Assembly (NCBI GenBank): GCA_964617925.1
Contig: CAZTYO010000001.1
Span: 1 to 60,771 of the forward strand
Direction: 5' to 3'
DNA: 60,771 bases
DNA from: Candidatus Woesearchaeota archaeon
GTDB taxonomy: Archaea; Nanobdellota; Nanobdellia; SCGC-AAA011-G17; PNOQ01
In this document: in pieces, positions 7,953 through 52,979 of the stretch
Position numbering within the stretch: the stretch's first letter is position 1
Layout of the letters: every line of letters starts with the position of its first letter
The notes under the pieces: generated by a model
Told to the model about the DNA's origin: nothing
The model's database searches: none
What the model saw: the letters and a program-made list of their open reading frames with translations, nothing else
Program-made: the position numbers and the translations under genes

Positions 7953-8519
7953 ATGGTATCAACATTACAACAATCAATTGAGTTTCTTAAAGACTTTGGT
8001 CTTTTTGATGTAGTCCTTCCTTTCTTACTTGTGTTTGCATTAATTTTTGCAATTCTTGAAAAAACATTTATACTTGGTAAGGAAAGTGATGGAATTGCTA
8101 AGAAAAATTTAAATTCAATTGTTGCTCTTGCAATTGCTTTAATTGCGGTTGCTACAAATAAAGTTATTGGTGCGATTAATGAGGCTTTGCCCAATGTTGT
8201 TTTACTAATTGTTGTTTCAATTTCTTTTCTTATGATGATCGGAGTTTTTCTTAAAACTGGAGAATTTGATTTCAAGACTACGCACGGAAATTGGTATAAG
8301 GCTTTTGTTGTTGCAATGTTTGTTGGAGTTTTATTAATTTTTGCTAGTGCTATAAAAGTAGAGGGAGTTAGTTGGCTGAGTATGATACTAAGTAAGATTG
8401 GTGGAATTTCTGAATCAGTTATTAGTTCATTTATATTTTTAGCAATAGTTGTAGGAATTCTTGCATTTATAATTAAAGGATCGAATAGCAAAGATAGTAA
8501 TTCTGGAAGTGGTGGTTAA
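7953..8519 (+). CDS. 4-TM membrane protein, paralog 1 of a tandem triplet (unknown family)
   Basis: Shares VVLPFLLVFALIFAILEKTFILG with the next two genes. ~4 predicted TM helices and a Ser/Gly tail. Confidence 0.75.
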   Translation: MVSTLQQSIEFLKDFGLFDVVLPFLLVFALIFAILEKTFILGKESDGIAKKNLNSIVALAIALIAVATNKVIGAINEALPNVVLLIVVSISFLMMIGVFLKTGEFDFKTTHGNWYKAFVVAMFVGVLLIFASAIKVEGVSWLSMILSKIGGISESVISSFIFLAIVVGILAFIIKGSNSKDSNSGSGG

Positions 8520-8521
8520 TT

Positions 8522-9067
8522 ATGGTAAATATCAATCAATTAGTTTATCAATTAGAAACTTCAGGTGTTTATGAATATATGTTGCCCTTTCTTTTGGTAT
8601 TCATAGTTATTTTTTCAATTTTAGAAAAGGTTCATATTCTTGGTTCAATTAAAGCACCAATCACTCCTGGTGCTCCTGGTGCTTCGGATGCTCCTAAAAC
8701 TTCTCTTAATGCAATATTTTCGGTAATAGTTTCTTTAATTGTTATAGTTAATACCGATATTGTTATGTTAATTAATAATTATATGTCCAAGATGGCAATG
8801 ATAGTAATTTTAACTGTGATGTTCATGATTCTTGTTGCATTAATTACTGGAAAGAAATTTGACAAGGGAGGTTTCTTTTTTGCAGCTCTTTTTGCTTTGG
8901 CGGCAGCAGTTTGGTCTTTGACTCCATATCAGCTTCATAATCAAGCATGGTATCATGCATTATCTCCTACAATTAATGCATCTTTTCCACTTGTTTTATT
9001 TGGTTTAGTGATTGTTTGGATAGTCAAAGCTAGTAGTACTACTCCTGGTAGGTGGACTAGAACTTAG
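8522..9067 (+). CDS. 4-TM membrane protein, paralog 2 of a tandem triplet
   Basis: YMLPFLLVFIVIFSILEKVHILG. Has a Pro/Ala/Gly-rich loop insertion (PITPGAPGASDAP). Starts 2 nt after paralog 1 ends. Confidence 0.75.
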   Translation: MVNINQLVYQLETSGVYEYMLPFLLVFIVIFSILEKVHILGSIKAPITPGAPGASDAPKTSLNAIFSVIVSLIVIVNTDIVMLINNYMSKMAMIVILTVMFMILVALITGKKFDKGGFFFAALFALAAAVWSLTPYQLHNQAWYHALSPTINASFPLVLFGLVIVWIVKASSTTPGRWTRT

Positions 9068-9078
9068 ATTTATAAAAA

Positions 9079-9564
9079 ATGGTATTAGATGTTTCAATGT
9101 TTGGCAATTTTTTGCCAGTATTTGTTTTTGTATTGATATTTACGTTATTGTATGCGTTACTTGAAAAAACAAAACTTCTGGGATCAAATAGTAGTTTGAA
9201 TTTTTTAATTAGCATGTCTATTGCATTCATTTCTTTATTTTCTGGAAATGCAATGAAATTAGTGTTGTTTGTTTTGCCTTGGTATATTTTTTTAATGGTT
9301 TTTTTAGTGTCAATATTCAGTTTGTTTTTATTTTATGGAATGAAAGAAGAAGATTTTTTTCCTAAGCCCACCATCATATTTATAGTTATGATGATCTTTT
9401 TAATAATTGGCATTACAAAAGTTTTTGGTCCTGTTTTTACACCTTATGTAGAAGAAGGAACTAGTAATGTATTAAGGACTATTTTTCATCCAAGGGTATT
9501 TGGAGCATTTTTTATATTACTAATATCTTCATTTTTAATAAAGAACATTTCAGAGAATGTTTAA
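9079..9564 (+). CDS. 4-TM membrane protein, paralog 3 of a tandem triplet
   Basis: FLPVFVFVLIFTLLYALLEKTKLLG; same topology but more diverged. Confidence 0.7.
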   Translation: MVLDVSMFGNFLPVFVFVLIFTLLYALLEKTKLLGSNSSLNFLISMSIAFISLFSGNAMKLVLFVLPWYIFLMVFLVSIFSLFLFYGMKEEDFFPKPTIIFIVMMIFLIIGITKVFGPVFTPYVEEGTSNVLRTIFHPRVFGAFFILLISSFLIKNISENV

Positions 9565-10726: not shown

Positions 10727-13009
10727 ATGGCATTCAAGAAAAAATTAAAATCGGGCGAATATGAATTAATTCAAGATGGGCAATTTGATGTAATGAAAGT
10801 GAATTATCTTGGAATCTCACATTCGTCATCTATTTCAGACAGTAAATTTTGTATGTTGGATGTCATTAACAAATTAATTGAAGTTCCAAGTGTGAATAGG
10901 TTAATCATTTCTTCTGAAAAAAATTATCAATATTCTGCTGAACAAATTTCGATGTTAAGGGAAATTGCGAATTTGTATATTTATTTAACTAAACAAAAAA
11001 GAATATTGAGTTTTGGAAGTTTTGGATTAAGTGTTGAATATGCACAAAAATCTCCTTCTAGGTTTTCAGAACTTCAATTTGTTATATCTACTCTTCTTCG
11101 TAGTGATCCAATCGGAGCATATGTAGAATTGAGGAGATTAATTAGGGAACAAAAAATTAGGATTTCTAAACTTCCTACAAAAGATTTGGCAAATGAAGAA
11201 AATGCACATCTCGAGTTGTTAGTTGGAGTGGTAGATTTATTGAAAAAAACTAAATTAATATCTTCTATTCTGGATTTTGTAGATGGGCATGAAATAGGTG
11301 ATCGTTCATTTTACTCTTCCTTATTTAGGCCATTGATTTCTCCAAATTTTATGTTTACTAGACTTATGTCTGAAATTCCATTGGATGGTGAAGAAATTGA
11401 TGCATATAATTTAGATAAAGAAACAGGTATTTCTATTTTTATTACTAAAAATGATATAAAACCTCTTTATCATTTGGATCCACTTGAATTTAATTTACCA
11501 GAAGAAAAAAATGAATTGTTAGATTTAGCTAGATCTGTTTTAGCAGAACATAAACCTGTTACTGAAGAGTTTGTAGATCCAGAAAATATGAGAAGAACAT
11601 TTTTTAATATAGGTAGAGATTTATTAATTGAACTTGCAAAACATAAAAATTATATTATACCTTATGATGAGATAGAAAATCTTGCTAATATTTTGGTTAG
11701 ATATACTGTAGGTTTTGGATTGATTGAATTATTATTAAAAGATCCTAAAATTCAAGATGTCGTTATAAATGGCCCAATCGGAGTAACTCCAATTTTTATT
11801 GTTCATCAAGATTATGGGGAATGTGTTACAAACATAATTCCTAGCAGGGAAGATGGAGAAAGTTGGGCAACGAAATTTAGAATGATTAGTGGCCGTCCAT
11901 TAGATGAAGCTAATCCAGTTTTGGACACTCAGCTTAATGTTCCTGGTGGTCAGGCAAGAGTTGCAATAATTTCTCAACCTCTTAATCCCTTAGGATATGC
12001 ATATGCTTTTAGGAGGCATAGGGAACATCCATGGACATTACCTTTATTTGTTCATAATAAAATGATAAATTCACTTGCTGCAGGTTTGCTTAGTTTTGTA
12101 ATTGATGGTGGAAGAACTATGCTTATTGCTGGAACCAGGAGCAGTGGTAAAACTTCCTTGCTTGGTTCTTGTTTAGTTGAAATTATGAGAAAACATAGAA
12201 TAATTACTGTTGAAGATACCTTAGAATTGCCAGTTAATTCTCTTAGAGATATGGGATATAATATTCAACCTATGAAAGTTAGGGCTGCGTTATCTGAAGG
12301 CGGGGCTGAAATGGCAGCAGAAGAAGGAATTAGAACAAGTTTGCGGCTTGGAGATAGCAGTTTGATAGTTGGAGAAATAAGGAGTAAGGAAGCTTTAGCT
12401 TTATATGAAGCTATGAGAGTTGGTGCCCTTGCTAATGTTGTTGCTGGAACTATCCATGGTGCAAGCCCCTATGGTGTTTATGATAGGGTAGTAAACGATC
12501 TTGGAGTTCCACGTACTAGTTTTAAGGCAACAGATTTGATTATTGTTGTAAATCCTATAAAAACTCCAGATGGTCTCCATAAAATTAAAAGAGTAGTTAG
12601 TATAACTGAAATTAGAAAAGACTGGGAAAAAGATCCGCTTGCTGAAAGAGGTTTTGTCGACCTTATGAAATATAATGCAAAAACTGATCAGTTGGAACCT
12701 ACAGATAATTTAATAAATGGAGATTCCGAAGTTATAAAGAGTATAGCTAGTTCAGTTAAAGAATGGGTTGGAGACTGGGATGCAGTTTGGAATAACATAA
12801 GATTAAGGGCAAAAATAAAACAAAGATTGGTTGATTATGCAGTAGAAAATAAAAATCTTGATCTTTTGGAAGCTCCCTTTGTTATAAACTCAAATGATCA
12901 ATTTCATAAAATATCTGATTCTATTCTAAGAAAAACTGGAAAATCAGATTATGAAAAAGTATATTTCCAATGGAATGAATGGTTAAAGAAACAAATAAAA
13001 AAGAGGTGA
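10727..13009 (+). CDS. type II/IV secretion-family ATPase (archaeal PilB/FlaI-like), long N-terminal extension
   Basis: Walker A (AGTRSSGKTS), the Asp/Glu box region and GEIRSKEALALYEAM, typical of GspE/VirB11/FlaI ATPases. ~330 residues precede the recognisable core. Confidence 0.85.
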   Translation: MAFKKKLKSGEYELIQDGQFDVMKVNYLGISHSSSISDSKFCMLDVINKLIEVPSVNRLIISSEKNYQYSAEQISMLREIANLYIYLTKQKRILSFGSFGLSVEYAQKSPSRFSELQFVISTLLRSDPIGAYVELRRLIREQKIRISKLPTKDLANEENAHLELLVGVVDLLKKTKLISSILDFVDGHEIGDRSFYSSLFRPLISPNFMFTRLMSEIPLDGEEIDAYNLDKETGISIFITKNDIKPLYHLDPLEFNLPEEKNELLDLARSVLAEHKPVTEEFVDPENMRRTFFNIGRDLLIELAKHKNYIIPYDEIENLANILVRYTVGFGLIELLLKDPKIQDVVINGPIGVTPIFIVHQDYGECVTNIIPSREDGESWATKFRMISGRPLDEANPVLDTQLNVPGGQARVAIISQPLNPLGYAYAFRRHREHPWTLPLFVHNKMINSLAAGLLSFVIDGGRTMLIAGTRSSGKTSLLGSCLVEIMRKHRIITVEDTLELPVNSLRDMGYNIQPMKVRAALSEGGAEMAAEEGIRTSLRLGDSSLIVGEIRSKEALALYEAMRVGALANVVAGTIHGASPYGVYDRVVNDLGVPRTSFKATDLIIVVNPIKTPDGLHKIKRVVSITEIRKDWEKDPLAERGFVDLMKYNAKTDQLEPTDNLINGDSEVIKSIASSVKEWVGDWDAVWNNIRLRAKIKQRLVDYAVENKNLDLLEAPFVINSNDQFHKISDSILRKTGKSDYEKVYFQWNEWLKKQIKKR

Positions 13010-15136
13010 ATGATGCCAATATCTGATAAAGAAATTCAAGATATTTTAAATAAATATAAAGTAAAACTTGAAGATAAAGTGAATGTGTCTGATATTAATA
13101 AATATTCTCCTAATCCTGAATTTTCTAAAGAGTATGAACAATTTAAAAAAGAATATATGTCTGCTGGAACAAGTACTTATGAAAAAATGTGTTCTGTTTC
13201 TGAAGGAATTTTAAAAGTTAACCCTTCAAAAAAAGATTATAATAAAATTGAAGAAAGTATTAAATTTACCCATTTGAAAATTACTCCTATTAGTGTTGCA
13301 AGTTTTTCAATGGTTGTTGCAGGAATATTTGTCCTGTTAGCAATTTTAGTTGGTTCAATTGGTTATTTTGTTTTTGAAAATTCTTCATCAATTTTTTTAG
13401 CAGTTTTGTTTGTTATTGGTGCCCTCATTTCTTTAAAATATTTTACAAATTATCCTATCCGTCTTGCTAATCAATGGAGGTTACAAGCTAGTAATCAAAT
13501 GGTATTGTGTATTCTTTATCTTGTTATTTATATGAGGCACACTTCTAATTTTGAAAATGCAATAAAATTTGCTGCAGATCATGTTAAACCTCCTCTCTCT
13601 CTTGACCTTAGAAAGATTTTTTGGGATGTTGAAACTGGAAAATTTTCAACTATGAAGGAATCTTTAGAAAGTTATCTTTCTCATTGGAGGGATTATAATT
13701 TAGAATTTGTCAATTCTTTTCATTTAATTGAAAGTAGTTTATATGAACCAGATGAAGGAAGAAGATTAGAACTTTTAGATAAAGGTTTAAAAGTAATTTT
13801 GGATGGAACTTATGATCGGATGCTTCGTTATGCGCATGATTTGAAAAATCCTATAACTATGCTCCATATGTTGGGAGTAATTTTGCCGATACTTGGATTA
13901 GTAATCTTTCCTCTTATTGGTAGTTTTATGGGTGGAACTGTTAAATGGTGGCACCTTGCAATGTTATATAATCTTGCTCTCCCTGTTATGGTTTTTACTA
14001 TGGGCAATGGCATTTTAAATAAAAGGCCAACTGGCTATGGCGAAAGTTTAGTAGAAGTTAAAACGAAAAAAAATGCTTCTTATTTTGGCTTTTTTTTATT
14101 TGGATTATTCGTTCTTATAGGAATATCTCCATTTATATTACATGCTATAAATCCAGGATATGATATTAATCTTTTTGGTGAGAAATTTCTAGATTTTGAA
14201 TGTTTTCAAACTGGAAAATGTTATGGTCCTTATGGTCTTGGTGCTACATTGTTGGGATTGTTCTTGCCTCTTGGAATTGCATTAGGTTTTGGAATTCATT
14301 TTGTTTCTAGAACAAAAAAAGCAATGAAAATAAGAGATGAAATAAAAAAATTAGAAAGTGAATTTTCTACAAGTTTGTTTCAGCTTGGAACTAGAATTGG
14401 AGATGGTATTCCTACCGAATCTGCTTTTAAAGATGTTGCGGAAACTTTAGGTGGGACTCCCACTGGTAATTTCTTTAGTAGGATTCATGCTAATCTAACT
14501 CAAGGAGGGTTAGGATTAAGGGATGCAATTTTTAATGGAGAAAATGGAGCAATTTTAGATTATAGGACGCCCTTAACTGAAAGTGCGATGGAAGTTCTTG
14601 TTGAAAGTTCAAAGAAAGGTCCGAATGTTGTTTCACAATCAATGATTAGTATTTCAGGTTATGTGGATAAGATCCATAAAATAAATGAAAGATTAAAAGA
14701 TCTTTTGGCAGAAATAATTTCTAGTATGAAAGGACAGATAAAATTTCTTACTCCCATAATTGCCGGAATTGTAGTTGGGATTTCTAGTATGATTGTAAGT
14801 GTAATCTCAAAACTTTCTCTTATGACTAAAGTAGTTCAGTCAGGGGATGATACCTTTGGAGGTGGAATTTCTGGACTGGGGGAATTATTCAATAAAGTAG
14901 ACACCATTCCTAGTTATTTTTTTCAAATTATTGTAGGGGTATATGTTATTCAAATAGTTTATATTTTAACTGTATTATCTAATGGAATTGAATTTGGTGT
15001 TGATAAATTAAATGAAAAAAATAAAGCTGGTAAAAATTTGATAAAGAGTACTCTACTATATTTAATTATATCTTTAGTTGTAATCTTAATGTTTAATGGC
15101 CTAGCATCTTCTATTCTTAGTCTTGATGGAATTTAA
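13010..15136 (+). CDS. polytopic pilus/archaellum platform protein (FlaJ/TadC/PilC-like)
   Basis: Starts directly after the ATPase stop. Has many TM helices separated by two soluble helical segments (for example FSTSLFQLGTRIGDGIPTESAFKDVAETL, T2SSF-like). Confidence 0.6.
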   Translation: MMPISDKEIQDILNKYKVKLEDKVNVSDINKYSPNPEFSKEYEQFKKEYMSAGTSTYEKMCSVSEGILKVNPSKKDYNKIEESIKFTHLKITPISVASFSMVVAGIFVLLAILVGSIGYFVFENSSSIFLAVLFVIGALISLKYFTNYPIRLANQWRLQASNQMVLCILYLVIYMRHTSNFENAIKFAADHVKPPLSLDLRKIFWDVETGKFSTMKESLESYLSHWRDYNLEFVNSFHLIESSLYEPDEGRRLELLDKGLKVILDGTYDRMLRYAHDLKNPITMLHMLGVILPILGLVIFPLIGSFMGGTVKWWHLAMLYNLALPVMVFTMGNGILNKRPTGYGESLVEVKTKKNASYFGFFLFGLFVLIGISPFILHAINPGYDINLFGEKFLDFECFQTGKCYGPYGLGATLLGLFLPLGIALGFGIHFVSRTKKAMKIRDEIKKLESEFSTSLFQLGTRIGDGIPTESAFKDVAETLGGTPTGNFFSRIHANLTQGGLGLRDAIFNGENGAILDYRTPLTESAMEVLVESSKKGPNVVSQSMISISGYVDKIHKINERLKDLLAEIISSMKGQIKFLTPIIAGIVVGISSMIVSVISKLSLMTKVVQSGDDTFGGGISGLGELFNKVDTIPSYFFQIIVGVYVIQIVYILTVLSNGIEFGVDKLNEKNKAGKNLIKSTLLYLIISLVVILMFNGLASSILSLDGI

Positions 15137-15175: not shown

Positions 15176-15289
15176 ATGGGTGAAATGGATAAATTTTTGA
15201 AGTATGCATTAAGGACAATATTTGTTTTACTTACATTATTTATATTATATTCCATGATTATGAAAGGGGTGAATTTATTTGTTAAATAA
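15176..15289 (+). CDS. 37-aa micro-ORF, single-TM peptide
   Basis: MGEMDKFLKYALRTIFVLLTLFILYSMIMKGVNLFVK. Not in the ORF track. Overlaps the next gene's TTG start by 11 nt. Confidence 0.35.
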   Translation: MGEMDKFLKYALRTIFVLLTLFILYSMIMKGVNLFVK

Positions 15290-16166
15290 AAAAGCAGGAA
15301 TGGCAATGACTATTGCAGGAATAATAATATTAGTTCTTGCTGCAGGAATTTTCCTATACTGGTTTCTTTTTGAATTTGGTCCTTATGCCGAACAAGGAGT
15401 TGGAAGAGAAGCATGTAGGGATAGTGTTTTTTTGAGAACTCAAGGAAAGATTGCAGGATATACCACTTTTAAAAATTTGGCTTGTGAAACTAGACAAAGA
15501 GAAATTAAAACTGTTGATGAAGATAATATTAAAAAAGCAATTTCTGAAGAAATGTATGATTGTTGGTATCAGTTTGGTGAAGGTAAAAAGGATTTTTTAA
15601 CTGATAGGGATTGGGGATTTGGAAATAATTGGTGTTTTATTTGTTCTAGGATTGATTTTGATGAAAGAGTTAAAGAAGAAATTTCTCAAGTAAATGGTTT
15701 GATGACTTATTTAGATACTACTCCAGTTCCATTTTATAATGGGTCTTTTTTTAATTATTTTTATGGTACTGAAGGAGAAATTGGTGGGCAAATTTTTGAA
15801 GATGACACCTATGCAACTAATGTTCCTCTTTATGTTGCTTTTTTTGGAGATAAGAAAGTAGGAAGTTGGCCAGGCCTTGGAGGAGAAGCAGTTAGCGATG
15901 TTGGGTGGACTGCACTTGTTGGTGGGATTGCAGGTTGTGTGATTTGGGGTACTCTTGGAGCTACTGGTGGAAGTATTGTTCCTATTGCTGGAACTGTTGC
16001 AGGTTTTATTGCTGGTTGTCTGGCTGGGGGTGATACTGGTTTTTATGCCGGGGCCTTAATTGGTGGTGGAAAGGCAGTTTATGATGTTGGAACCCATAAA
16101 AAAGGCTTTTATACTGGATTGTATGTTGGAAATAGTGATGAAATTTTGGAGTCGTGTAATCAATGA
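15279..16166 (+). CDS. pilin-like exported protein with Cys-containing middle domain and C-terminal glycine-zipper membrane segment
   Basis: N-terminus is LNKKA-GMAMTIAGIIILVLAAG (class III signal-like, TTG start; an alternative ATG lies at 15300). The C-terminus has GxxxG-dense hydrophobic repeats (VGGIAGCVIWGTLGATGGSIVPIAGTVAGFIAGCLAGG). Confidence 0.6.
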   Translation: MLNKKAGMAMTIAGIIILVLAAGIFLYWFLFEFGPYAEQGVGREACRDSVFLRTQGKIAGYTTFKNLACETRQREIKTVDEDNIKKAISEEMYDCWYQFGEGKKDFLTDRDWGFGNNWCFICSRIDFDERVKEEISQVNGLMTYLDTTPVPFYNGSFFNYFYGTEGEIGGQIFEDDTYATNVPLYVAFFGDKKVGSWPGLGGEAVSDVGWTALVGGIAGCVIWGTLGATGGSIVPIAGTVAGFIAGCLAGGDTGFYAGALIGGGKAVYDVGTHKKGFYTGLYVGNSDEILESCNQ

Positions 16167-16321
16167 ATAAAAAAGGAGACTTAGTTTGGGATCAGATTGG
16201 GAAATTTATTTTAGCAATTATATTGATGGTAATACTTGCTTTTATTCTTTGGATGCATAAAGATAATATTTTTGAAATGTTTGAAGATTTTAAAACTGTT
16301 TTTAGGTTTGGTGGTAGTTAG
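16163..16321 (+). CDS. 52-aa micro-ORF, pilin-like signal plus amphipathic Phe-rich tail
   Basis: MNKKGDLVWDQIGKFILAIILMVILAFILWMHKDNIFEMFEDFKTVFRFGGS. ATGA overlap with the upstream stop, and its TAG overlaps the next GTG start by 1 nt. Not in the ORF track. Confidence 0.45.
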   Translation: MNKKGDLVWDQIGKFILAIILMVILAFILWMHKDNIFEMFEDFKTVFRFGGS

Positions 16322-17499
16322 TGGAGACTACTATTAAACATATAATTTCGGGAATTTTTGTAGTTATGATTATAGTTTTGGTTGGTTTTTGGGGAAATAG
16401 TACTCTAACGACCTTGGCAAATCAATATGGTTGGGATCTTTTTATTGGTGCAGATGAAATTGCTGCTCAAAAAGATTCAAAAGAAATTTTTGATGATTTA
16501 ACTTTGTCTTTAACCGAATGTATGAGTGACGAAAGTGTTAATTGTTTTTGCATTAAGGAAGAGATAAATCTCCCCACCGATTTCAGACTTGAATTTTCTA
16601 AAAAAGAAAGTAGTACTGATGTTATTTTAAAGTCTTCAAGAGTTACATTGGATGAAAAAAATATTAATTTTATTCCTTGCCTTTTACTTGAACCTTGGCG
16701 TTCGTCAGTTAGTTTGAATGGTCCTTTGACTTTATTATACGGAAATGATAAGATAATTAATAAAGATTATGAAGGTTTTTTTGATTCTTCTTCTGTGTTT
16801 TATAAGATGGAAAATAATAATCTTTGTATTGTTTCTGTTGAAGTTGCTAATTCCTATGATATAATCAGTTTGGAATGTTCTGAAAAAGATGAATCTTTTG
16901 ATTCATGGATTGATGCAGCAATAGTTTTTGATTCTGAAATTGATAATGTCCAATTAAATCAATATGTTTCACTTGCATCAATAAATTCAAATTTTGTGAA
17001 TAATGCAGATAAAATAATTAAGGGAATAATTTATTTAGAATCTTATAATAATGGAATATTCACAAATAGAGAGATATTAAAACACCAAGGAACTGGAAAA
17101 TATTTTGAAGGAAAAGGAAAAGGAATATCTTCACTACAAGTCATTGAATCTGGTCCTGCATATGAAGCTATTGGATCTGATGAAGGTAGGAGAATTTTAA
17201 ATTTATATGGATATTCTGATGTTGATTTCAGTGATGATTATTTGTCTGCTCTTTTAATTAATGATCCAGAATTTTCTATTTCTCTTGCATATGTTTATTT
17301 ATCTAATTCTATTGAAGATTTTTCAAATGTTCAAAATACTAATGATTTGTTTAAGTTATGGTTAATTAATTATAATAAGGCGAGTTTGGAATATGGAGAT
17401 TATGTCAATAAGATAAATCTTTTAAATAGCAGAGTTTTTGATATTGGAATTGAAAATTCGCAAGTCATAAGTGAAGATCAGAATCCTCACAGAATTTAA
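16321..17499 (+). CDS. N-terminally anchored exported protein with C-terminal lytic-transglycosylase (SLT/GH23)-like motif set
   Basis: TM helix IISGIFVVMIIVLVGFW. The C-terminal region has YLES..N, GISSLQV, LINDPEFSISLAYVYL and WLINYNKA, in the order and approximate spacing of the SLT motifs ES / GLMQ / DPxxNIxxGxxYL / AYNAG. Confidence 0.45.
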   Translation: METTIKHIISGIFVVMIIVLVGFWGNSTLTTLANQYGWDLFIGADEIAAQKDSKEIFDDLTLSLTECMSDESVNCFCIKEEINLPTDFRLEFSKKESSTDVILKSSRVTLDEKNINFIPCLLLEPWRSSVSLNGPLTLLYGNDKIINKDYEGFFDSSSVFYKMENNNLCIVSVEVANSYDIISLECSEKDESFDSWIDAAIVFDSEIDNVQLNQYVSLASINSNFVNNADKIIKGIIYLESYNNGIFTNREILKHQGTGKYFEGKGKGISSLQVIESGPAYEAIGSDEGRRILNLYGYSDVDFSDDYLSALLINDPEFSISLAYVYLSNSIEDFSNVQNTNDLFKLWLINYNKASLEYGDYVNKINLLNSRVFDIGIENSQVISEDQNPHRI

Positions 17500-17707
17500 T
17501 AAAATGGAAAATAAAGAGTTAGAACAAAGAAGAATTCCCCTTACAGGTATAAAGTTAAAGGAAAATTTAGATAAAAATAAAGAAGTTGTTAGGGAAGCTA
17601 TAGAAGATCATATGTTTATTATGCCAGCATATTTAAAATTTTTTCATTTTTTTCCTACAATAAAAACTTATTTTAAAGAGAAGGTTAAATCTAAATCAAC
17701 CAAAAAG

Positions 17708-17715
17708 TTTAAATA
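17708..17715 (+). promoter_or_regulatory. TATA-like box in front of the canonical pilin gene
   Basis: TTTAAATA ends 27 nt upstream of the GTG at 17742. It lies in the only long spacer (17500-17741) of the operon. Confidence 0.4.
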
Positions 17716-17741
17716 GTAAATTTGCTAGTTTTTTAGAAGAG

Positions 17742-18107
17742 GTGATTATACTGAAAGTTGATAAAAAAGGTCAAAGTCTTTCAATGAATACAATTATAAT
17801 ATCTATTCTTGTGATATTAGTTTTAGTTATTGTTGCTGGATTTTTTGCAGGTGGGATGACTGGATTAATAAATAAGATGAAGGGAATTTTTGGAGCTCAG
17901 CCAATTGATGCTAGCCAGGCAGTAATGGAATGTAATGGCTATTGTCAGAGTTATGATATAACTGGTGTAGAAAATTACAAAACTAATTTTTGTGGTGATG
18001 TGCTTTTTGATTTAGATACTGATAATGATGGTAAGATGGATACAAGTAAAACTTGCTCTCAACTCGGAGTCATATGTCAAACGATTATAGATGAAGGGGG
18101 ATGTTAA
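17742..18107 (+). CDS. archaeal type IV pilin-like protein (class III signal peptide), Cys-rich globular domain
   Basis: VDKKGQ-SLSMNTIIISILVILVLVIVAG is a textbook KGQ cleavage context plus hydrophobic helix. Six Cys in the ectodomain. The exact start (GTG 17742) is uncertain. Confidence 0.75.
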   Translation: MIILKVDKKGQSLSMNTIIISILVILVLVIVAGFFAGGMTGLINKMKGIFGAQPIDASQAVMECNGYCQSYDITGVENYKTNFCGDVLFDLDTDNDGKMDTSKTCSQLGVICQTIIDEGGC

Positions 18108-18139
18108 CCCTTTCTTTCTATTATTTGGAGATTTGTTAA

Positions 18140-18310
18140 ATGAGACTTGCCCTTGATACCATAGTTGTGTTTATTATAGCTATTTTAGTTTTAGTTTTAA
18201 TGTTGTTTATTTTTGGGGATCAATTTAAGACATTTTTTAATACATTTGGTGTGTTTATAAAGAATGCATTAGGTATTGCTAATATTGGTGTTAATGGAAC
18301 CATACAATGA
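18140..18310 (+). CDS. 56-aa micro-ORF, single-TM peptide with Phe-rich amphipathic tail
   Basis: MRLALDTIVVFIIAILVLVLMLFIFGDQFKTFFNTFGVFIKNALGIANIGVNGTIQ. GGAG lies ~8 nt upstream, and there is an ATGA overlap with the next gene. Not in the ORF track. Confidence 0.45.
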   Translation: MRLALDTIVVFIIAILVLVLMLFIFGDQFKTFFNTFGVFIKNALGIANIGVNGTIQ

Positions 18311-18786
18311 AATTAAGTTTTAAATTTATCTTTGGATTGGTAATTGGTATTGCAGGTCTTTTTTTGGCATTTAGTGCAGGGAGTGCAATGTGGGGGATTT
18401 TTTTCCCCGAACCTTTAGAATTAACTGAAAGTTCTATGGATAGATTGAATGTAGTTATATCAAATTTAGAAGAAGGTCAGAATACCACTATGTTATTTTA
18501 TTTAGAAAAGGGTTTTTATTTAGTTGGTTTTGATAAAGGGTCTGATTCTGGGCCAGTATATTTGCGACCTGAACAATGTTTTGAAACTTTCTGTTTATTA
18601 ATTTGTTCAAATTCTGGAAATGAAAGAAGTTGTTTAGATGCAAATTATGGGATAAGTCCTAATTCAATTGTTTCTTTTACTTCTGAAAATGTTGGCGGAG
18701 TTATTCTTTCAGAAACGGGAGAATATATTACTTTATACTTGGAAAAACAAGGAAGTGCTCTTTTAATTGAAAAACTTAATTCTTAA
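18307..18786 (+). CDS. N-terminally anchored exported protein, unknown family
   Basis: 159 aa; TM helix FIFGLVIGIAGLFLAFSAG; 4 Cys. In-operon position. Confidence 0.65.
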   Translation: MKLSFKFIFGLVIGIAGLFLAFSAGSAMWGIFFPEPLELTESSMDRLNVVISNLEEGQNTTMLFYLEKGFYLVGFDKGSDSGPVYLRPEQCFETFCLLICSNSGNERSCLDANYGISPNSIVSFTSENVGGVILSETGEYITLYLEKQGSALLIEKLNS

Positions 18787-18799
18787 ATTTGTAAAAATC

Positions 18800-18809
18800 T
18801 TTATAAATA
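18800..18809 (+). promoter_or_regulatory. TATA-like box, possible internal promoter
   Basis: TTTATAAATA ends 20 nt before the ATG at 18830. Confidence 0.3.
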
Positions 18810-18829
18810 TGTAAATCTGATTTTTATGC

Positions 18830-19237
18830 ATGGAAGAGGAGAGAATATATTTGTGGCCAGGATATCTTGTTATAACAACGCTTGTTTTAATCTCTTTATT
18901 TTTTATTTTAGTTAAGATATCTGATGAAACTTCGTTTAATCAAGATTATCTTTCAAAAGATATTTCATTATTAGAACAAAGTTTATTTATTGCTCCAGGC
19001 GATGTTTCTCTTAGGTATGAAGTTGTTCAAGATGAAGATAGGTTTAAAATAACTTTTGATGATTCTTGTGAGGTAAATGTAAATATCGATGATAGTTTGG
19101 GTTTTTCTGGTTCTTCTTCTTGGTGTGGAGGAAATAATTATTTTTTTACAGATTATCCACCTCAAGATGATTTTGATTATTTATTTTTTAATAAAACTTA
19201 CTCGGATTTAATTGTTGAAGGTGGAAAAAATGGATAA
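18830..19237 (+). CDS. N-terminally anchored exported protein, unknown family
   Basis: 135 aa; TM helix GYLVITTLVLISLFFILV; acidic ectodomain. Confidence 0.6.
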   Translation: MEEERIYLWPGYLVITTLVLISLFFILVKISDETSFNQDYLSKDISLLEQSLFIAPGDVSLRYEVVQDEDRFKITFDDSCEVNVNIDDSLGFSGSSSWCGGNNYFFTDYPPQDDFDYLFFNKTYSDLIVEGGKNG

Positions 19238-19727
19238 AAAAGGTTTTGTTTTTTTAACTGAAGAACAAATGAGTTTAGTCGTATATGTTTTTGTAATTCT
19301 TTTTGTTTGTGGCGTTTTAATTGTTGGATCATATTTATTTACAGATAAAAACATTGAAACTCAAGGGTTAGAGAGGCATTTATTAATAAATGGATTGTTA
19401 TATTCTCCAACTTGTTTGAGTTATAGTGATGAACTTCGTTCATATCCTGGAATAATAGATTTAGATAATTTTAATGAGAATAAATTGTCTAATTGTATTT
19501 CTTATGAATTCGGAGGCCAAGGATTTAAGTTAATTTTATATGATGTTAATGAAACAATATTGAAAGAAGTAGAAGTTAATCCTCAAGTATTTACACAGGG
19601 ATTATTGTGTGGATTGAAAGAATCAAATTTTGAATGTTTTTCCAAACGAGATTATGTGTTGTTTGAGAACAATTCTTTTTTTGAATCTGGTTATTTAGAT
19701 ATTAAGGTGGTGACTCCAGTTGGATAA
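19230..19727 (+). CDS. pilin-like protein (class III signal-like N-terminus)
   Basis: MDKKG-FVFLTEEQMSLVVYVFVILFVCGVLIVG. GGTGGA precedes the ATG at 19230 (the track used the TTG at 19212). 8-nt overlap with the upstream gene. Confidence 0.6.
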   Translation: MDKKGFVFLTEEQMSLVVYVFVILFVCGVLIVGSYLFTDKNIETQGLERHLLINGLLYSPTCLSYSDELRSYPGIIDLDNFNENKLSNCISYEFGGQGFKLILYDVNETILKEVEVNPQVFTQGLLCGLKESNFECFSKRDYVLFENNSFFESGYLDIKVVTPVG

Positions 19728-20295
19728 AAAAGCAACAACTTTAATGATGAGGCTTTTTAATATTCTTTTAATAGGAATTCTCTTGGCAGGATTTTTATTG
19801 ATTATGGCATTTGGTAGTTTGAAAGAAAGTGAAAATCAAGAGATTATTAAAATAAATGAAAAATTAACTTATTCTGAAGATAACCTTCAAATGATTAATT
19901 ATCTTAGGTCTAATTTCCAATTTCCAAAATTTGGAAATTCTAGTGTTTTATCTATATTAATAAATTATGATTCTAATCTTCTTTCTAGTTCTGATGTGAA
20001 TTTTCTGAAAGAACAAACTGAAAATATCTTAAATAATATGACATACTGTCAAATTATTGATAATAAAGAAATTTTGAGAAGTTATTCCTTTTATTTGACT
20101 GCAGAACTATATATGAAATTTGATGAAATTGAGGAAATTGTTCAATTCAGTTCAGAATCTTTTTGTAATGTGGATGATCAATTTATTTGTAATGATCAAT
20201 TTATTGTTGAAACTCAAAAATTATTAGATGGGTATTATCTTATTCTTGTTGCTAGTGATACTTTTTATTCTGGGGAGAATTGTTTAAAATGGTGA
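19720..20295 (+). CDS. pilin-like protein (class III signal-like N-terminus)
   Basis: TTG start preceded by AAGGTGGTGA. MDKKA-TTLMMRLFNILLIGILLAGFLLIM. 8-nt overlap with the upstream gene. Confidence 0.55.
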   Translation: MDKKATTLMMRLFNILLIGILLAGFLLIMAFGSLKESENQEIIKINEKLTYSEDNLQMINYLRSNFQFPKFGNSSVLSILINYDSNLLSSSDVNFLKEQTENILNNMTYCQIIDNKEILRSYSFYLTAELYMKFDEIEEIVQFSSESFCNVDDQFICNDQFIVETQKLLDGYYLILVASDTFYSGENCLKW

Positions 20296-21059
20296 ATAAA
20301 AAAGGATTATTTACATTATATGTTTTAATTTATACTATCTTAGGAATAGGAATTTCTTTAATGTTATTTGTTAATTTTCAAGAACATTCTTCTACTAAAT
20401 ATCTTGGAGATAGCCAATTAAACCTTATTGAATTATATTCTGAAGGGGAGAGTGATCTATTTTATGTTACTCAACTTCTTTCTGATATTGAAATTGTTTC
20501 TAGTTTGTTTGAAAATGGAGGATTTTATAATGATCCAAATAAAATGAATGGAGAATATGTATTGTGGAAAAAGAATTCATCCGATTGCTATCCCACTTTA
20601 AATTTATTAGATAGGGAGTTTTCTATTGTTTTTAATAAAAAATTGTTAAATGAAGGCTATTCTCTTGATTATTCCACCAAAGTTATAAATTCTCTTTCTT
20701 TTTTTGAAATTTTATTTAATTCTTCAAAAAATTTAGATTATTCTATTGTTAATAAAGAAAATGAAGAAATTGGAATTTATTCTCTCTCCCCTAATTTCAA
20801 AATCTTGATTAATTATGATTTAAATAATTTTTTTAGTTTTGTTGAAGAAGTTAAATCTATTGTAGGTTTGTGCCAAAATGACGAAAATTGTTGGGAATCT
20901 CATGCAACTTTTGAATGGGAGAACAATGGTAACCTTTTTATGTTTGAGTCACTTCCTCAATTAATTCAAACTGTAAATGGAGAAAAAGAAGTAAAAATTA
21001 AAGCTGCAGTTGATTTCGAAGAAATAAATGAATTAGTTGAAGGTGAATTTGAATGTTAA
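20289..21059 (+). CDS. pilin-like protein (class III signal-like N-terminus)
   Basis: MVNKKG-LFTLYVLIYTILGIGISLMLFV. GGGGAG lies 12 nt upstream of the ATG at 20289. Overlaps both neighbours. Confidence 0.55.
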   Translation: MVNKKGLFTLYVLIYTILGIGISLMLFVNFQEHSSTKYLGDSQLNLIELYSEGESDLFYVTQLLSDIEIVSSLFENGGFYNDPNKMNGEYVLWKKNSSDCYPTLNLLDREFSIVFNKKLLNEGYSLDYSTKVINSLSFFEILFNSSKNLDYSIVNKENEEIGIYSLSPNFKILINYDLNNFFSFVEEVKSIVGLCQNDENCWESHATFEWENNGNLFMFESLPQLIQTVNGEKEVKIKAAVDFEEINELVEGEFEC

Positions 21060-24114: not shown

Positions 24115-24399
24115 ATGGCATATGTGATAGTGACTTTAAAAATAATGCCAAATAATCCCGAAGTAGATTTGAAAGAATTGGAATCAAAGATTAAAGTTTC
24201 ATTATCCGAATTTTTGAAAAAAAAAGAACCAGAAACTAAAGTAGAAATAACTCCTGTTGCATTTGGATTAAATTCAATTGATCTGACTTTTGCAGTAGAT
24301 GAAAGTCTGGGTTCGGCAGATCCTTTTGCAGAGTTAGTTTCAACTTTCGAAGAAGTTGCTTCTGCGGAAATAATCGATGCTAGACGGGCATTAGGTTAA
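24115..24399 (+). CDS. ef1b: translation elongation factor aEF-1 beta
   Basis: MAYVIVTLKIMPNNPEVDLKELE...VAFGLNSIDLTFAVDE...SAEI pattern and ~94 aa size. Start moved to the ATG at 24115. Confidence 0.75.
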   Translation: MAYVIVTLKIMPNNPEVDLKELESKIKVSLSEFLKKKEPETKVEITPVAFGLNSIDLTFAVDESLGSADPFAELVSTFEEVASAEIIDARRALG

Positions 24400-25275
24400 A
24401 ACATACATCAAGACATTTCCAAATATTAAACTTATTATTACTGCCAATATTATTGCAGGTAGAAAGGGGATTCCATCTTTTATTATTATTTTTTTAATTT
24501 TGTTTTTATTTAATAATTTAATTTGTTCTTTTGTAATTCCTTGTGTAGATGGTTTGTAAATTATTTGTTTATTTACTTTTATTTGATGAGTTATGTAATC
24601 TCCTTCTCTTAATTTATTTGAATTAATTGTTTTGATCATGCTTGCTTTTTCTATTGCAGAAATGGTTAACCAAAAATAAAATAAAACTAAAGGTAATGCA
24701 AGTATTATTATTGCCGAAAGTTTAAATTGAAAATTTTTAATCATTATCATACTTAATAATATTCCACTTATTGAAAAATAAATTGTTATTTTTTTTAGTT
24801 TTTTAATATTCTTGATTTTACTTTTTTCCTTATAATATTTTATTAATTTTTCTTTATTTTTTATTCCTAATATTATTCCTAAAATTATACTATATATTGC
24901 TCCAACAATCATTATGTTGATAAACAAAATTATTAAAAAATTCATATTTAAAGAAGGGTTAAAATATTTTAATAAGAATTCTGGATATTCTGGAATCGCT
25001 GCTCCAATCATCATTAATATTTTTGAATCTCCTCCTCCCCATTGTTTTGTGTAATACATTATATTTCCAATAGTGAAAAATATTCCAAAACCAATTAAAC
25101 TAATAATTAAGATATTCCAATTGTTCGATATTAGTGAAGAAAATAAATAAAAACTAAAGAGTGAGATTATTATACTAAAATTTAACCAATTTGGAACTTC
25201 TTTAGTTTTTATATCTGAATAAGTAGCTATAGTTAATCCTATTAATAATAATATTAAAATTATTGCTTCCATCAA
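24391..25275 (-). CDS. A24-family prepilin/preflagellin peptidase (PibD/FlaK/EppA-like)
   Basis: Polytopic. First catalytic Asp context is ATYSDIKTKEVPNWLN; the second is in WGGGDSKILMMIGA (GxGD). Confidence 0.8.
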   Translation of the reverse strand: MMEAIILILLLIGLTIATYSDIKTKEVPNWLNFSIIISLFSFYLFSSLISNNWNILIISLIGFGIFFTIGNIMYYTKQWGGGDSKILMMIGAAIPEYPEFLLKYFNPSLNMNFLIILFINIMIVGAIYSIILGIILGIKNKEKLIKYYKEKSKIKNIKKLKKITIYFSISGILLSMIMIKNFQFKLSAIIILALPLVLFYFWLTISAIEKASMIKTINSNKLREGDYITHQIKVNKQIIYKPSTQGITKEQIKLLNKNKIKKIIIKDGIPFLPAIILAVIISLIFGNVLMYVLT

Positions 25276-25452: not shown

Positions 25453-26580
25453 ATGTTTAATAAAAAAGCTAGTGTTTCTGGATTCATGATTCTTTTAGCT
25501 TTTCTTATGATTATTTACACTCTTTTATTGCCGCCTTGTGATAAATGCGAGTTATTAGATCTTGAATGTTCTGATGATTGTCATTTTGGTGGTGAAAATT
25601 TAATTTTGGATGAGTTTCCAGGGTTAATCTCTCCTCATTCAGATACTACTGTTGCCCATAATTTTGATTCTTTGAATTTATTTTTTCATTCCAACCCAGA
25701 GCTTAGAGAATTAATAAGTGAGTTACGTTTAGAAAATGGACTATTTAGTAATGTCGATCAAACTTTATTCTTTAATTTGGAAAATATAGAAGATTTGGAA
25801 TCTGTTCTTCTTTCTTTTGCTATTGCCGATAAAAAAGGAGAATTAAATATTAAATTGAATGGTTATGATATCTTTTCCGATCATGTTGATGAAAATATAA
25901 AAATAATTACTCTTCCTGTTGATTATTTAACTGAAAATAACGAAATAACTTTTTTTGTTAGTTCTCCTGGTATAAATTTTTTATCTAGTAGTTATTATGA
26001 TTTAATTGATATTAATTTGAAACTTAATTATGAATTAATTTATTCTAGCAATCTTGAATCTTTTGATATCTCGGTTATGGAAAAAGCAAGCATGAAAAAA
26101 TCTAGTTTATCTTATTCTGTTTTTTGTAATTGGGGACCAGGGAGTAATTTATTGAAAATTTATCTTAATCAGAATCAAGTGTTATCTGAAGCAATATCTT
26201 GTGCAAGTGAAAACCGTGCATTGAATTTGGATGTTGATTTTTTTGTAGAAAATTCAAATGATCTAACTTTTGCAATTGATGGTGGAGATTATATATTTAG
26301 TGATGTTAAAATTATAAATTACCTTTCTGAATCTATTCAACCTATTTATAATTTTAATTTAAATAAAAAAATTGAGGATAATTATTATTTAAATTTTATA
26401 TTTTCTGGCAATTATTTTTCTCTAGATGTTATAATTAATGGTCAAAGTTTTAATATTGATACTTTAGAAAACGAAGTTGGAAAGGATATAACTGACATGT
26501 TAAATTCTGGAAATAATATTTTAGAAATAGTGCCCCTTTCTCAATTTGAGATAGAAACACTTAAAATAAGAACAATTTAA
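25453..26580 (+). CDS. large pilin-like/exported protein, unknown ectodomain
   Basis: MFNKKA-SVSGFMILLAFLMIIYTLLL class III-like signal; 375 aa; Cys cluster near the N-terminus. Confidence 0.6.
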   Translation: MFNKKASVSGFMILLAFLMIIYTLLLPPCDKCELLDLECSDDCHFGGENLILDEFPGLISPHSDTTVAHNFDSLNLFFHSNPELRELISELRLENGLFSNVDQTLFFNLENIEDLESVLLSFAIADKKGELNIKLNGYDIFSDHVDENIKIITLPVDYLTENNEITFFVSSPGINFLSSSYYDLIDINLKLNYELIYSSNLESFDISVMEKASMKKSSLSYSVFCNWGPGSNLLKIYLNQNQVLSEAISCASENRALNLDVDFFVENSNDLTFAIDGGDYIFSDVKIINYLSESIQPIYNFNLNKKIEDNYYLNFIFSGNYFSLDVIINGQSFNIDTLENEVGKDITDMLNSGNNILEIVPLSQFEIETLKIRTI

Positions 26581-47531: not shown

Positions 47532-47882
47532 TTAGCATAACATGCTATATATTTTCTTAAATACTACAAAAAGACCTGTTGTACCTAAGAATACTTTGAA
47601 CAGTTCAAAGAAGGATCCTGCAATTGCACCAACGTAAAATCCGCTATCTAAAATTGGTGTGAATTGAGACAATAGTACAAATAATAATATAAGCCACATT
47701 AACGGCATAACATCTTTCGCACTGTATAGCCACCCTACTATGATACCAAGTACAACTAGAACTAAATATGCATATTGATTAGTAAATGCAAATCCGAAAG
47801 CACCAGCTACTGCTAAAAATAGTGCTAATACCCAAGCTGCAGTAAATGCCCACTTGTCCCATGTTGCTTTTTTCTTAGCCAT
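47532..47882 (-). CDS. small 3-4 TM membrane protein, unknown function
   Basis: 116 aa, with a MAKKKATWDKW start and then hydrophobic helices. Strong coding appearance. Confidence 0.6.
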   Translation of the reverse strand: MAKKKATWDKWAFTAAWVLALFLAVAGAFGFAFTNQYAYLVLVVLGIIVGWLYSAKDVMPLMWLILLFVLLSQFTPILDSGFYVGAIAGSFFELFKVFLGTTGLFVVFKKIYSMLC

Positions 47883-52454: not shown

Positions 52455-52979
52455 TTATTCTCCCATTAAATTAACAATTATTGTACCTGTTCCATATTGT
52501 TCGCCTGATGCAGATTCTGCAATTAGTGTATAAAAACAAGTTGGCCCTATCGGTGTACCTTTTGGAATATTTATCTGAAAAGGTATTGAAGTTAGGTCTC
52601 CTTCTTCAGTGGGTAATGCAGTAGTTGGTGTTTTTATCCAATCTAATTCACAGGCTGGATCGTTTCCACTTAATGCTAAGTTTAGTATAACATCTCCCCA
52701 TCCGTTATAATCTCTCACTCCTACTCCTACTGTTCTAATGTTTCCAGGTTTTATTTCAAATGATAGTCCTGATATGAAAAAGTCATCGTCGCTTGCCATT
52801 ATTTCTCTTACCATTCTGTCTGCTTCAAGAAATGCTTCATCCCCAAGTGAACCTCCCTTGTCAAATATATTTTTTACCCACGTTAGTCCAAGTGTTAATA
52901 ATGTGACTCCAATTACAATTACAATTATTGTTGTCATAGACAATTCGATTGCCCCTTTTTTATTAGAATGAGTTTTCAT
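52455..52979 (-). CDS. archaeal type IV pilin-like protein (class III signal peptide)
   Basis: MKTHSNKKG-AIELSMTTIIVIVIGVTLLTLG. GGTGA lies upstream. Confidence 0.7.
   Translation of the reverse strand: MKTHSNKKGAIELSMTTIIVIVIGVTLLTLGLTWVKNIFDKGGSLGDEAFLEADRMVREIMASDDDFFISGLSFEIKPGNIRTVGVGVRDYNGWGDVILNLALSGNDPACELDWIKTPTTALPTEEGDLTSIPFQINIPKGTPIGPTCFYTLIAESASGEQYGTGTIIVNLMGE

Follow-up and report, generated by a model that had tools for sequence, protein, structure and literature searches.

The stretch analyzed here (hereafter the window) comprises 60,771 nucleotides (nt) of contig CAZTYO010000001.1, positions 1 to 60,771 of the forward strand, from the assembly GCA_964617925.1 of a Candidatus Woesearchaeota archaeon, and it encodes a pilus-type operon along with a set of proteins whose N-termini share the short motif [ND]KK[GA] and a hydrophobic helix. 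The genome (G000) amounts to 605 kb in 41 contigs, with a guanine-cytosine (GC) content of 28% and an estimated completeness of 92%; its contigs are given C-numbers, the window being C1, and loci of relatives are given L-numbers. From position 10727 the plus strand carries a T2SSE/FlaI-like ATPase, a platform protein, and then a tight run of small genes with N-terminal helices. The relevant features are the following (aa, amino acids; ORF, open reading frame; SD, Shine-Dalgarno sequence):

10727..13009, plus strand: T2SSE/FlaI-like assembly ATPase, 760 aa, first gene of the operon; matches PF00437, with FlaI as best NCBIfam match (132 bits, below cut-off).
13010..15136, plus strand: polytopic platform protein, 708 aa, adjoining the ATPase gene; weak T2SSF match (PF00482, E 3.6e-4, below cut-off).
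15279..16166, plus strand: pilin-like protein, 295 aa, TTG start; leader M-L-N-K-K-A, then GMAMTIAG...
16163..16321, plus strand: micro-protein, 52 aa, ATG start overlapping the upstream stop (ATGA); leader M-N-K-K-G, then DLVWDQIGK and a helix.
17742..18107, plus strand: pilin-like protein, 121 aa, ORF counted from a GTG, start uncertain; ...V-D-K-K-G, then QSLSMNTIII.
19230..19727, plus strand: pilin-like protein, 165 aa, internal ATG start; leader M-D-K-K-G, then FVFLTEEQ and a helix.
19720..20295, plus strand: pilin-like protein, 191 aa, TTG start; leader M-D-K-K-A, then TTLMMRLF...
20289..21059, plus strand: pilin-like protein, 256 aa, ATG start; leader M-V-N-K-K-G, then LFTLYVLIY...
24391..25275, minus strand: A24 (prepilin/preflagellin-type) aspartyl peptidase, FlaK-like; PF01478 above cut-off, the sole A24 match in the genome.
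25453..26580, plus strand: exported protein, 375 aa, ATG start, divergent from the peptidase gene; leader M-F-N-K-K-A, then SVSGFMILL...
52455..52979, minus strand: stand-alone pilin, 174 aa, ATG start with GAGGTGAT as SD; leader M-K-T-H-S-N-K-K-G, then AIELSMTTIIVIVIGVTLL.

An earlier reading of the window from its letters alone (the sequence-only reading) had listed eight such N-termini as prepilin signals, each with a hydrophobic helix directly after the motif, and had placed three of them outside the main operon. All eight are present, and their assignment to the prepilin type (class III) is supported by the evidence below. A hydrophobic stretch of at least 18 residues (Kyte-Doolittle mean 2.3-3.4) starts 0-10 residues after the site in each of them; the helix is thus common to all eight, and the word "directly" fails for the proteins from 16163 and 19230, in which it starts 9-13 residues past the G, after partly charged residues. 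Only two of the eight (25453 and 52979) fall outside 15279-21059.

Very probably, the motif is the cleavage box of ordinary archaeal class III (type IV prepilin-like) signal peptides, in a form that belongs to the Woesearchaeota lineage. In this form, the leader would have 4-10 residues, most commonly M-N-K-K-G, and would end in [N>D,K,M]-K-[K/R]-[G/A]. When the entire genome was scanned in six frames (those of 50 aa or more), ~40 copies of [ND]KK[GA] were returned, 16 of which are exact N-terminal motifs, lying within 12 residues of a start codon and followed by a hydrophobic stretch of at least 18 residues (C1 carries eight of them, C4 five, and C5, C8, and C10 a single one apiece). The remaining two dozen copies are scattered within proteins or in non-coding frames, and eight further N-termini are near matches (NKRG, KKRG, MKKG). 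In a crude set of 656 genes, the motif occurs 26 times overall, where composition predicts 24.8; the first 13 residues hold 14 copies vs. 1.06 expected (Poisson P ~1e-11), 12 of which stand before an N-terminal helix. An equal frequency of the motif in cytoplasmic proteins, which had been set earlier as a check on the idea, was not found, as the proteome beyond the N-termini holds 12 copies vs. 23.7 expected.

To describe the site, candidates were chosen by [KR][GA] near the start and a helix only, and removal of multi-pass membrane proteins and of Sec or lipoprotein signals left 24 proteins. Position -1 is G in 17 and A in seven of these (all eight from the window fit), position -2 is K in 18 and R in six, position -3 is K in 24 of 24, and position -4 is N in 17, D in three, K in two, and the initiator M in two. 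N or D therefore stands at -4 in 20 of the 24, against a background of 11.3% (binomial 8e-16). The K at -3 is exclusive although the K:R ratio of the proteome is 74:26 (P 8e-4), and the K:R ratio at -2 is that of the background. The N at -4 is kept for any distance to the initiator Met (MNKKG, MLNKKA, MKTNKKA, MKEVNKKG, MKTHSNKKG), which indicates that it is anchored to the cut site and not to the start codon. Mean column identity among the 24 proteins is ~10%, with the Lys at -3 as the sole invariant column, and by this measure they appear to be otherwise unrelated. The residue at +1 is Q in nine, the mature protein would begin with [IVM]-S-P in five, and the others have G, D, F, T, L, S, A, Y, or N. 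Each of the 24 combines G/A at -1, K/R at -2, and a hydrophobic domain (H-domain) after a site near the N-terminus, as in class III signals; the leaders have 4-10 residues, and the H-domain (2.1-3.6 on the Kyte-Doolittle scale, 18-residue windows) starts 0-13 residues downstream. The G/A at -1, the K/R at -2, and above all the K at -3 thus appear to be functionally constrained, and no feature of the box is tighter than the Lys at -3, which never varies. Where the sequence-only reading had proposed a defined set of eight substrates, we find ~24 motif-bearing proteins (roughly 4% of the genes, eight of them in the window), at least three assembly ATPases, and one DsbA-like non-pilin among the proteins with the motif. 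This last protein (G000:C5:4639-5232) is Thioredoxin_4/DsbA-like, shows no CxxC where one would usually lie, and has a helix after an initial MNKKG; the peptidase may process it as a substrate that is no pilin, or it may be a plain signal anchor whose start only resembles the motif.

The core machine encoded in this genome consists of the A24 peptidase, the T2SSE/FlaI-type ATPase, and the polytopic platform. The peptidase scores 49.1 bits against PF01478 (cut-off 26.5), and its best match in the PDB is FlaK (3S0X, E 2.6e-11), with the two catalytic Asp residues, D21 and that of GGGD (residue 83), aligned to the FlaK motifs. Against NF040695 (FlaK_Arch) it reaches 61.7 bits, under the equivalog cut-off of 330, and these scores describe it as FlaK-like, not FlaK. 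The proposal that a single A24 peptidase is encoded stands, this being the sole match in the 92%-complete genome, and exactly one A24 peptidase is found in 79 of 81 sampled genomes of the order, closed genomes included. T2SSE ATPases have four matches in the genome (C1, C4, C24, and C32; the C32 match is weak, borderline, and in a 299-aa frame), and at least three assembly ATPases are present. Archaellin (PF01917) was not found in the genome. Given four ATPase matches and one A24 gene, a single peptidase would serve several pilus-type machines. As the protein families involved suggest, the motif proteins would be inserted into the membrane via the Sec route with the N-terminus inside, the Lys-rich box would lie at the cytoplasmic face, and the single FlaK-like A24 aspartyl peptidase (24391-25275) would cleave after the G/A. 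Once freed, the hydrophobic N-terminal helix would act as the assembly module of filaments whose construction falls to the operon's ATPase and platform, and two or more further machines of this kind in the genome would use freed helices as well.

For the stand-alone pilin at 52455-52979, 138 homologs were retrieved, every one of Woesearchaeota- or Nanoarchaeia-type origin, and 119 of these were compared at the predicted site. The leader is variable in sequence and in length (4-35 residues), and from -3 onward the pattern is K in 118 of 119, then K in 101 or R in 18, G in 115 of 119, and then AIELSMTTIIVIVIGVTLL, with a near-invariant mature N-terminus, AIELSMTTII. A processing site with an assembly helix behind it would be expected to leave just such a sharp boundary where the cut is predicted. 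An AlphaFold2 (AF2) model of this protein, the one protein modelled (67 homologs, mean predicted local distance difference test [pLDDT] 89), has a helix at residues 15-64 and a seven-strand beta-sandwich, a predicted architecture of the usual archaeal pilin type. TIGR02537, the archaellin/type IV pilin N-terminal domain (cut-off 20 bits), is passed by four of the 24 candidates. One of these is G000:C4:20293-20757 (30.8 bits), and the others are likely the ISP/MSP/VSP-type proteins on C4, C7, and C8. In Pfam and NCBIfam scans, almost all candidates are orphans: a pilin-family match is lacking in 20 of the 24, the 15279..16166 protein has no match to a family in either collection, the 25453..26580 protein has none in the profile scan, and the only matches obtained were to TIGR02537 and, weakly, to Pilin_N/UpsA among the ISP-type proteins of C4, C7, and C8.

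Relatives of the operon ATPase (49-77% identity, plus one 34% partial) are encoded at 30 loci, which derive almost all from metagenome-assembled genomes labelled Woesearchaeota, Nanoarchaeota, or Nanoarchaeia and so place the organism among the DPANN archaea of this group. The mature N-terminus of the 17742 protein, (Q/A)xLSMNTIII, is kept in relatives behind leaders ending in NKKG, DKRG, or NKRG, and this protein is probably the main subunit of the filament made by the operon; a homolog search with its 121 aa gave only four matches, too few for statistics. The L007 ortholog of the 19230 protein has NKKG followed by FIFLTDEQ, and orthologs of the 20289 protein have GKKG followed by LFTLYVFIY (L006, L007, L030) or NRKG (L009, L017). 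Counterparts of the 16163 micro-protein (46-52 aa, same position in the operon) occur in L006, L007, L009, L015, L016, L017, L020, L030, L031, and L033, and leaders among them end in MKRG, NRRA, or SKKG. After the predicted cleavage, the 16163-16321 product would be scarcely more than one helix, a candidate helix-only mini-pilin.

Several points weigh against reading the box as a class III cleavage site. Cleavage in these proteins is predicted only, and the organism is uncultured. The motif is carried by the DsbA/thioredoxin-like G000:C5:4639-5232, which could be a simple signal-anchored protein, and several Sec-type signals in this genome also begin with MK[KR]G, so that K-[KR]-G alone is not discriminating. 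Only the four of 24 candidates named above reach the curated pilin-domain threshold, and none of the eight from the window does. A Foldseek search of the AF2 model against the PDB retrieved generic Ig-like sandwiches (adhesin, carbohydrate-binding module, p53-type) and no solved pilin. Finally, the 92% completeness of the genome leaves room for a second peptidase.

The sequence-only reading had gone further and taken the motif to be tighter than the generic [KR][GA] rule. The strongest version of this would be an extended P4-P1 specificity of the peptidase, in which the N/D at -4 is itself recognised and defines a closed substrate set; we regard this as unlikely. The preference at -4 is real in this genome, being shared by 20 of 24 sites from unrelated families whatever the leader length, and it is stronger than in G001, a closed relative from another family of the order (737 kb, 31% GC), where N occupies -4 in only 11 of ~37 class III-like N-termini (20/24 vs. 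11/37, Fisher 6e-5), many leaders are just MKK[GA], and K dominates -3 too. Across related genomes, -4 agreement within a locus is marginally above that of shuffled data (0.39 vs. 0.32, permutation p 0.05). Against such recognition, -4 is K or the initiator Met at four of the 24 sites, and the closest orthologs (ATPase 75-77% identical) have DKRA/SKKG, MKRG/NRRA, NKKG, NKKG, and GKKG where the window has NKKA, NKKG, DKKG, DKKG, and NKKG, that is, D/S, M, N, or G in place of N, N, D, D, and N, which implies that the position turns over quickly. In related AT-rich loci (65 sites), -4 is N in 31, the initiator M in nine, S in seven, D in five, and G in four, with K at -3 in 56; in the 119 homologs of the 52455-52979 pilin it is N in 59, S in 31, K in 16, and D in three. 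The common alternatives at -4 (K, S, D, T) are all single-base neighbors of AAT, and hydrophobic neighbors are rare. A relative with 63% GC and the same operon has RRRG, RRRA, QRKA, and ARKA, indicating that the N/K flavor follows base composition.

We therefore read -4 as a position where small or polar residues are apparently tolerated and N is favored in the clade, not as a recognition rule. The N/D at -4 reflects a preference for small polar residues at the level of lineage and genome, aided by AT-rich codons (AAT AAA AAA GGN). As elements of the earlier proposal, [ND] at -4 is thus a preference that is absent from four of the 24 sites and varies in orthologs and homologs, K at -2 was too strict given R at six sites, and K-K-G was already known for the FlaK substrates of Methanococcus (PMC2913515, PMC4985597). 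Only the -4 preference and the strict Lys at -3 go beyond the published pattern. Overall, the observation made from the letters has been confirmed and extended, and its interpretation holds for the class III assignment and the single peptidase and not for the tightness.

Considerably less probable is an explanation without a peptidase, in which the motif proteins are uncleaved signal anchors with the N-terminus inside and NKKG is only what the positive-inside rule yields when a genome of 28% GC uses AT-rich codons. The share of Lys is 10.3% overall and 17-23% at positions 2-6 across all proteins, Sec-type signals here start with MKK or MKRG as well, the K:R ratio at -2 does not depart from background, and look-alike starts occur in the DsbA-like protein and in multi-pass proteins (47532-47882 and a PAP2 protein on C3). 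A charge rule of this kind does not account for G/A being invariant at -1, for Lys being exclusive at -3, or for the N at -4, nor for the abrupt onset of conservation where the cut is predicted in 119 homologs, the TIGR02537 matches, and the clustering with genes for the ATPase, platform, and peptidase. Least credible of all is a constraint on the nucleic acid, with the A-rich AAUAAAAAAGG after the start as an unstructured initiation region or a slippery/phase-variable tract and the peptide as a by-product: the codons are near-uniform (AAT AAA AAA GGN/GCN) in most of the 24 genes, but AAG and AGA freely replace AAA (AAC AAA AGA GGT; AAT AAG AAA GGA), the A run is just 6-7 long, the GC-rich relative keeps a basic box and G/A with quite different codons, and conservation is anchored to the start of the helix, not to the start codon.

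The class III reading also fits what is known of characterized archaeal systems. Class III signals usually have G (or A) at -1 and basic residues at -2/-3, with K(-2) critical for Methanococcus FlaK (PMC2913515), and a charged -2 is critical in archaea (PMC4371748). The FlaFind rule (Szabo et al., 2007), as given in PMC4371748, asks for G/A/S at -1, a charged -2, and an H-domain right after a site near the N-terminus, and all 24 candidates fit it; in the form given there the rule is silent on -3 and -4, where the Woesearchaeota lineage adds a near-invariant Lys and a preference for small polar residues. Cleavage of FlaB2 in Methanococcus maripaludis falls at GKSKKG|ASGIG, and a leader need have no more than five residues (PMC4985597). 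As here, a small polar residue, K, K, and G precede the cut in Methanococcus archaellins, and the very short leaders of the window are near the reported minimum of ~5 residues (PMC4985597). Differences from FlaK are that the substrates here lack the +3 Gly that FlaK needs, that many different residues occur at +1 (Q, A, I/V/M-S-P, G, D, F, T, L, S, Y, N), and that the peptidase has 294 aa vs. 237 residues in the crystallised FlaK chain (3S0X).

Sulfolobus PibD offers a second parallel, since there too one enzyme serves several filament systems and many substrates, non-pilins included, with very short leaders (PMC2913515). The UpsA and UpsB sites, KA|IS and KG|IS (PMC4371748), resemble NKKA|ISPLI here, and four proteins of this genome have weak UpsA matches. 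Unlike PibD, which is reportedly lax at -2/-3 (PMC2913515), the sites here always have Lys at -3, and no sugar-binding proteins with the signal were seen in this genome. A third likeness is to the EppA/Epd pilins of Methanococcus (KG|Q, DUF361/PF04021), as K/R-G|Q is found in nine of the 24, including 17742-18107; the QxSxE spacing of Epd is not kept, the Q(+1) proteins lack the E(+5) pattern, and PF04021 (Class_IIIsignal, EppA-type, QxSxExxxL) has no match at E<=1 in the genome nor in the candidate proteins. No second, EppA-type peptidase was found in the genome, and the Q(+1) proteins would thus have to share the one enzyme. With Q(+1), ISP-type, and other substrates assigned to it, the peptidase would have to be broad on the primed side, as PibD is, while its unprimed side appears to keep a FlaK-like basic box. 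A literature search for a Woesearchaeota pilin signal found nothing specific.

Starts chosen to expose the motif, another element of the sequence-only reading, are mostly borne out. SD-like 4-mers precede 24% of crude gene starts vs. 12% of random positions, so only long (6-10 nt) SD matches were used. The TTG at 15279 has GGGGTGA 6 nt upstream, and its orthologs in L006, L007, and L030 keep DKRA/SKKG followed by EMAMT..., with no ATG. At 19230, the ATG has AAGGTGGA 4-5 nt upstream and the TTG at 19212 has no SD, and the internal ATG is preferred; at 19720, the TTG has AAGGTGGTGA 6 nt upstream and the next ATG (19744) has none. Two starts are unsettled. For the ATG at 20289 and the TTG at 20280, SD spacing does not decide. 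The "V" in the VDKKG of the 17742 ORF is encoded by GTT, which is not a start codon, and the annotated GTG at 17742 sits within an SD-like GAGGTGAT (window 17737-17760), which leaves the true start of the 121-aa pilin gene unclear. In orthologs of the 15279 and 17742 genes, a [DNS]K[KR][GA] leader is retained in the absence of an upstream ATG (in L006 and L009, no ATG lies ahead of the N-K-K-G of the 17742 ortholog), and the 17742 gene may use a non-canonical start a few codons downstream, at CTG 17751 or ATA 17748. The refined motif pattern can accordingly correct gene starts, both TTG starts and internal ATG starts.

The box is a lineage flavor of a well-known signal class, and it brings nothing new on how class III signals work. 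Its use lies in recognition: a search for M-x(0-5)-[NDSK]-K-[KR]-[GA] together with a helix picks up Woesearchaeota pilin-like proteins that are missed by Pfam and NCBIfam. In a recent census, type IV filament systems are reported to be scarce in DPANN (PMC13705601), and a 0.6-Mb genome with at least three assembly ATPases, one peptidase, and ~24 predicted substrates is a misfit with that picture; this inventory suggests that type IV filament machinery is probably central to the host contact of these cells.

A more speculative extension, to which we give a low probability, is that the lone FlaK-like peptidase reads an extended box in which Lys is strictly required at -3, -4 holds a small polar residue, and a minimum leader length is guarded via position 2. 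Were this the case, a single simple pattern would suffice to predict all of the pilus-dependent surface proteome (~4% of genes) in a host-dependent DPANN cell, and this proteome would extend to non-pilin enzymes, the DsbA-like protein among them. In homologs of the 52455-52979 pilin, position 2 is a small residue (S/A/G/T/C/P/V) in only one of 21 leaders of five residues (M-x-K-K-G), and the same residues stand at -4 in 35 of 97 longer leaders (Fisher p 0.0036, kinship ignored). The shortest leaders may thereby avoid removal of the initiator Met and keep the minimal leader length.

Among N-termini rejected as pilins, 47532-47882 (MAKKKA) and G000:C2:14949 are multi-pass membrane proteins, G000:C3:19439 is a PAP2 phosphatase, and several MK[KR]G proteins have short h-regions and AxA-type or lipobox sites, that is, Sec or lipoprotein signals. 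Elsewhere in the genome, a cluster at G000:C4:14700-22600 encodes a 531-aa ATPase and seven class III proteins, some of them TIGR02537-positive, and a second cluster at G000:C10:12500-19300 encodes five K/R-G|Q proteins. An NKRGQVTIF protein is encoded on C10 and a 661-aa MKKRGQVTIF protein on C14. Back in the window, further operon proteins have an N-terminal helix but no box (16321, 18307, 18830, 26591). An ORF of 56 aa at 18140-18310 starts with MR followed by LALDTIVVFII, with no G/A at -1, and L009 has a 57-aa ORF with GKKG followed by QGLSIETIII; if the two are orthologs, as size and sequence suggest, the leader may have degenerated in the window copy. Proteins with the motif DFGLFDVVLPFLLVF..ILEK are encoded at 7953-9564 of the window and, 3-8 kb upstream of the ATPase gene, in L011, L016, L018, L019, and L028. 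As candidates under the [KR][GA]-plus-helix choice they are false positives (VFRG, LFRG, FLKA), and they are conserved neighbors of the pilus locus.

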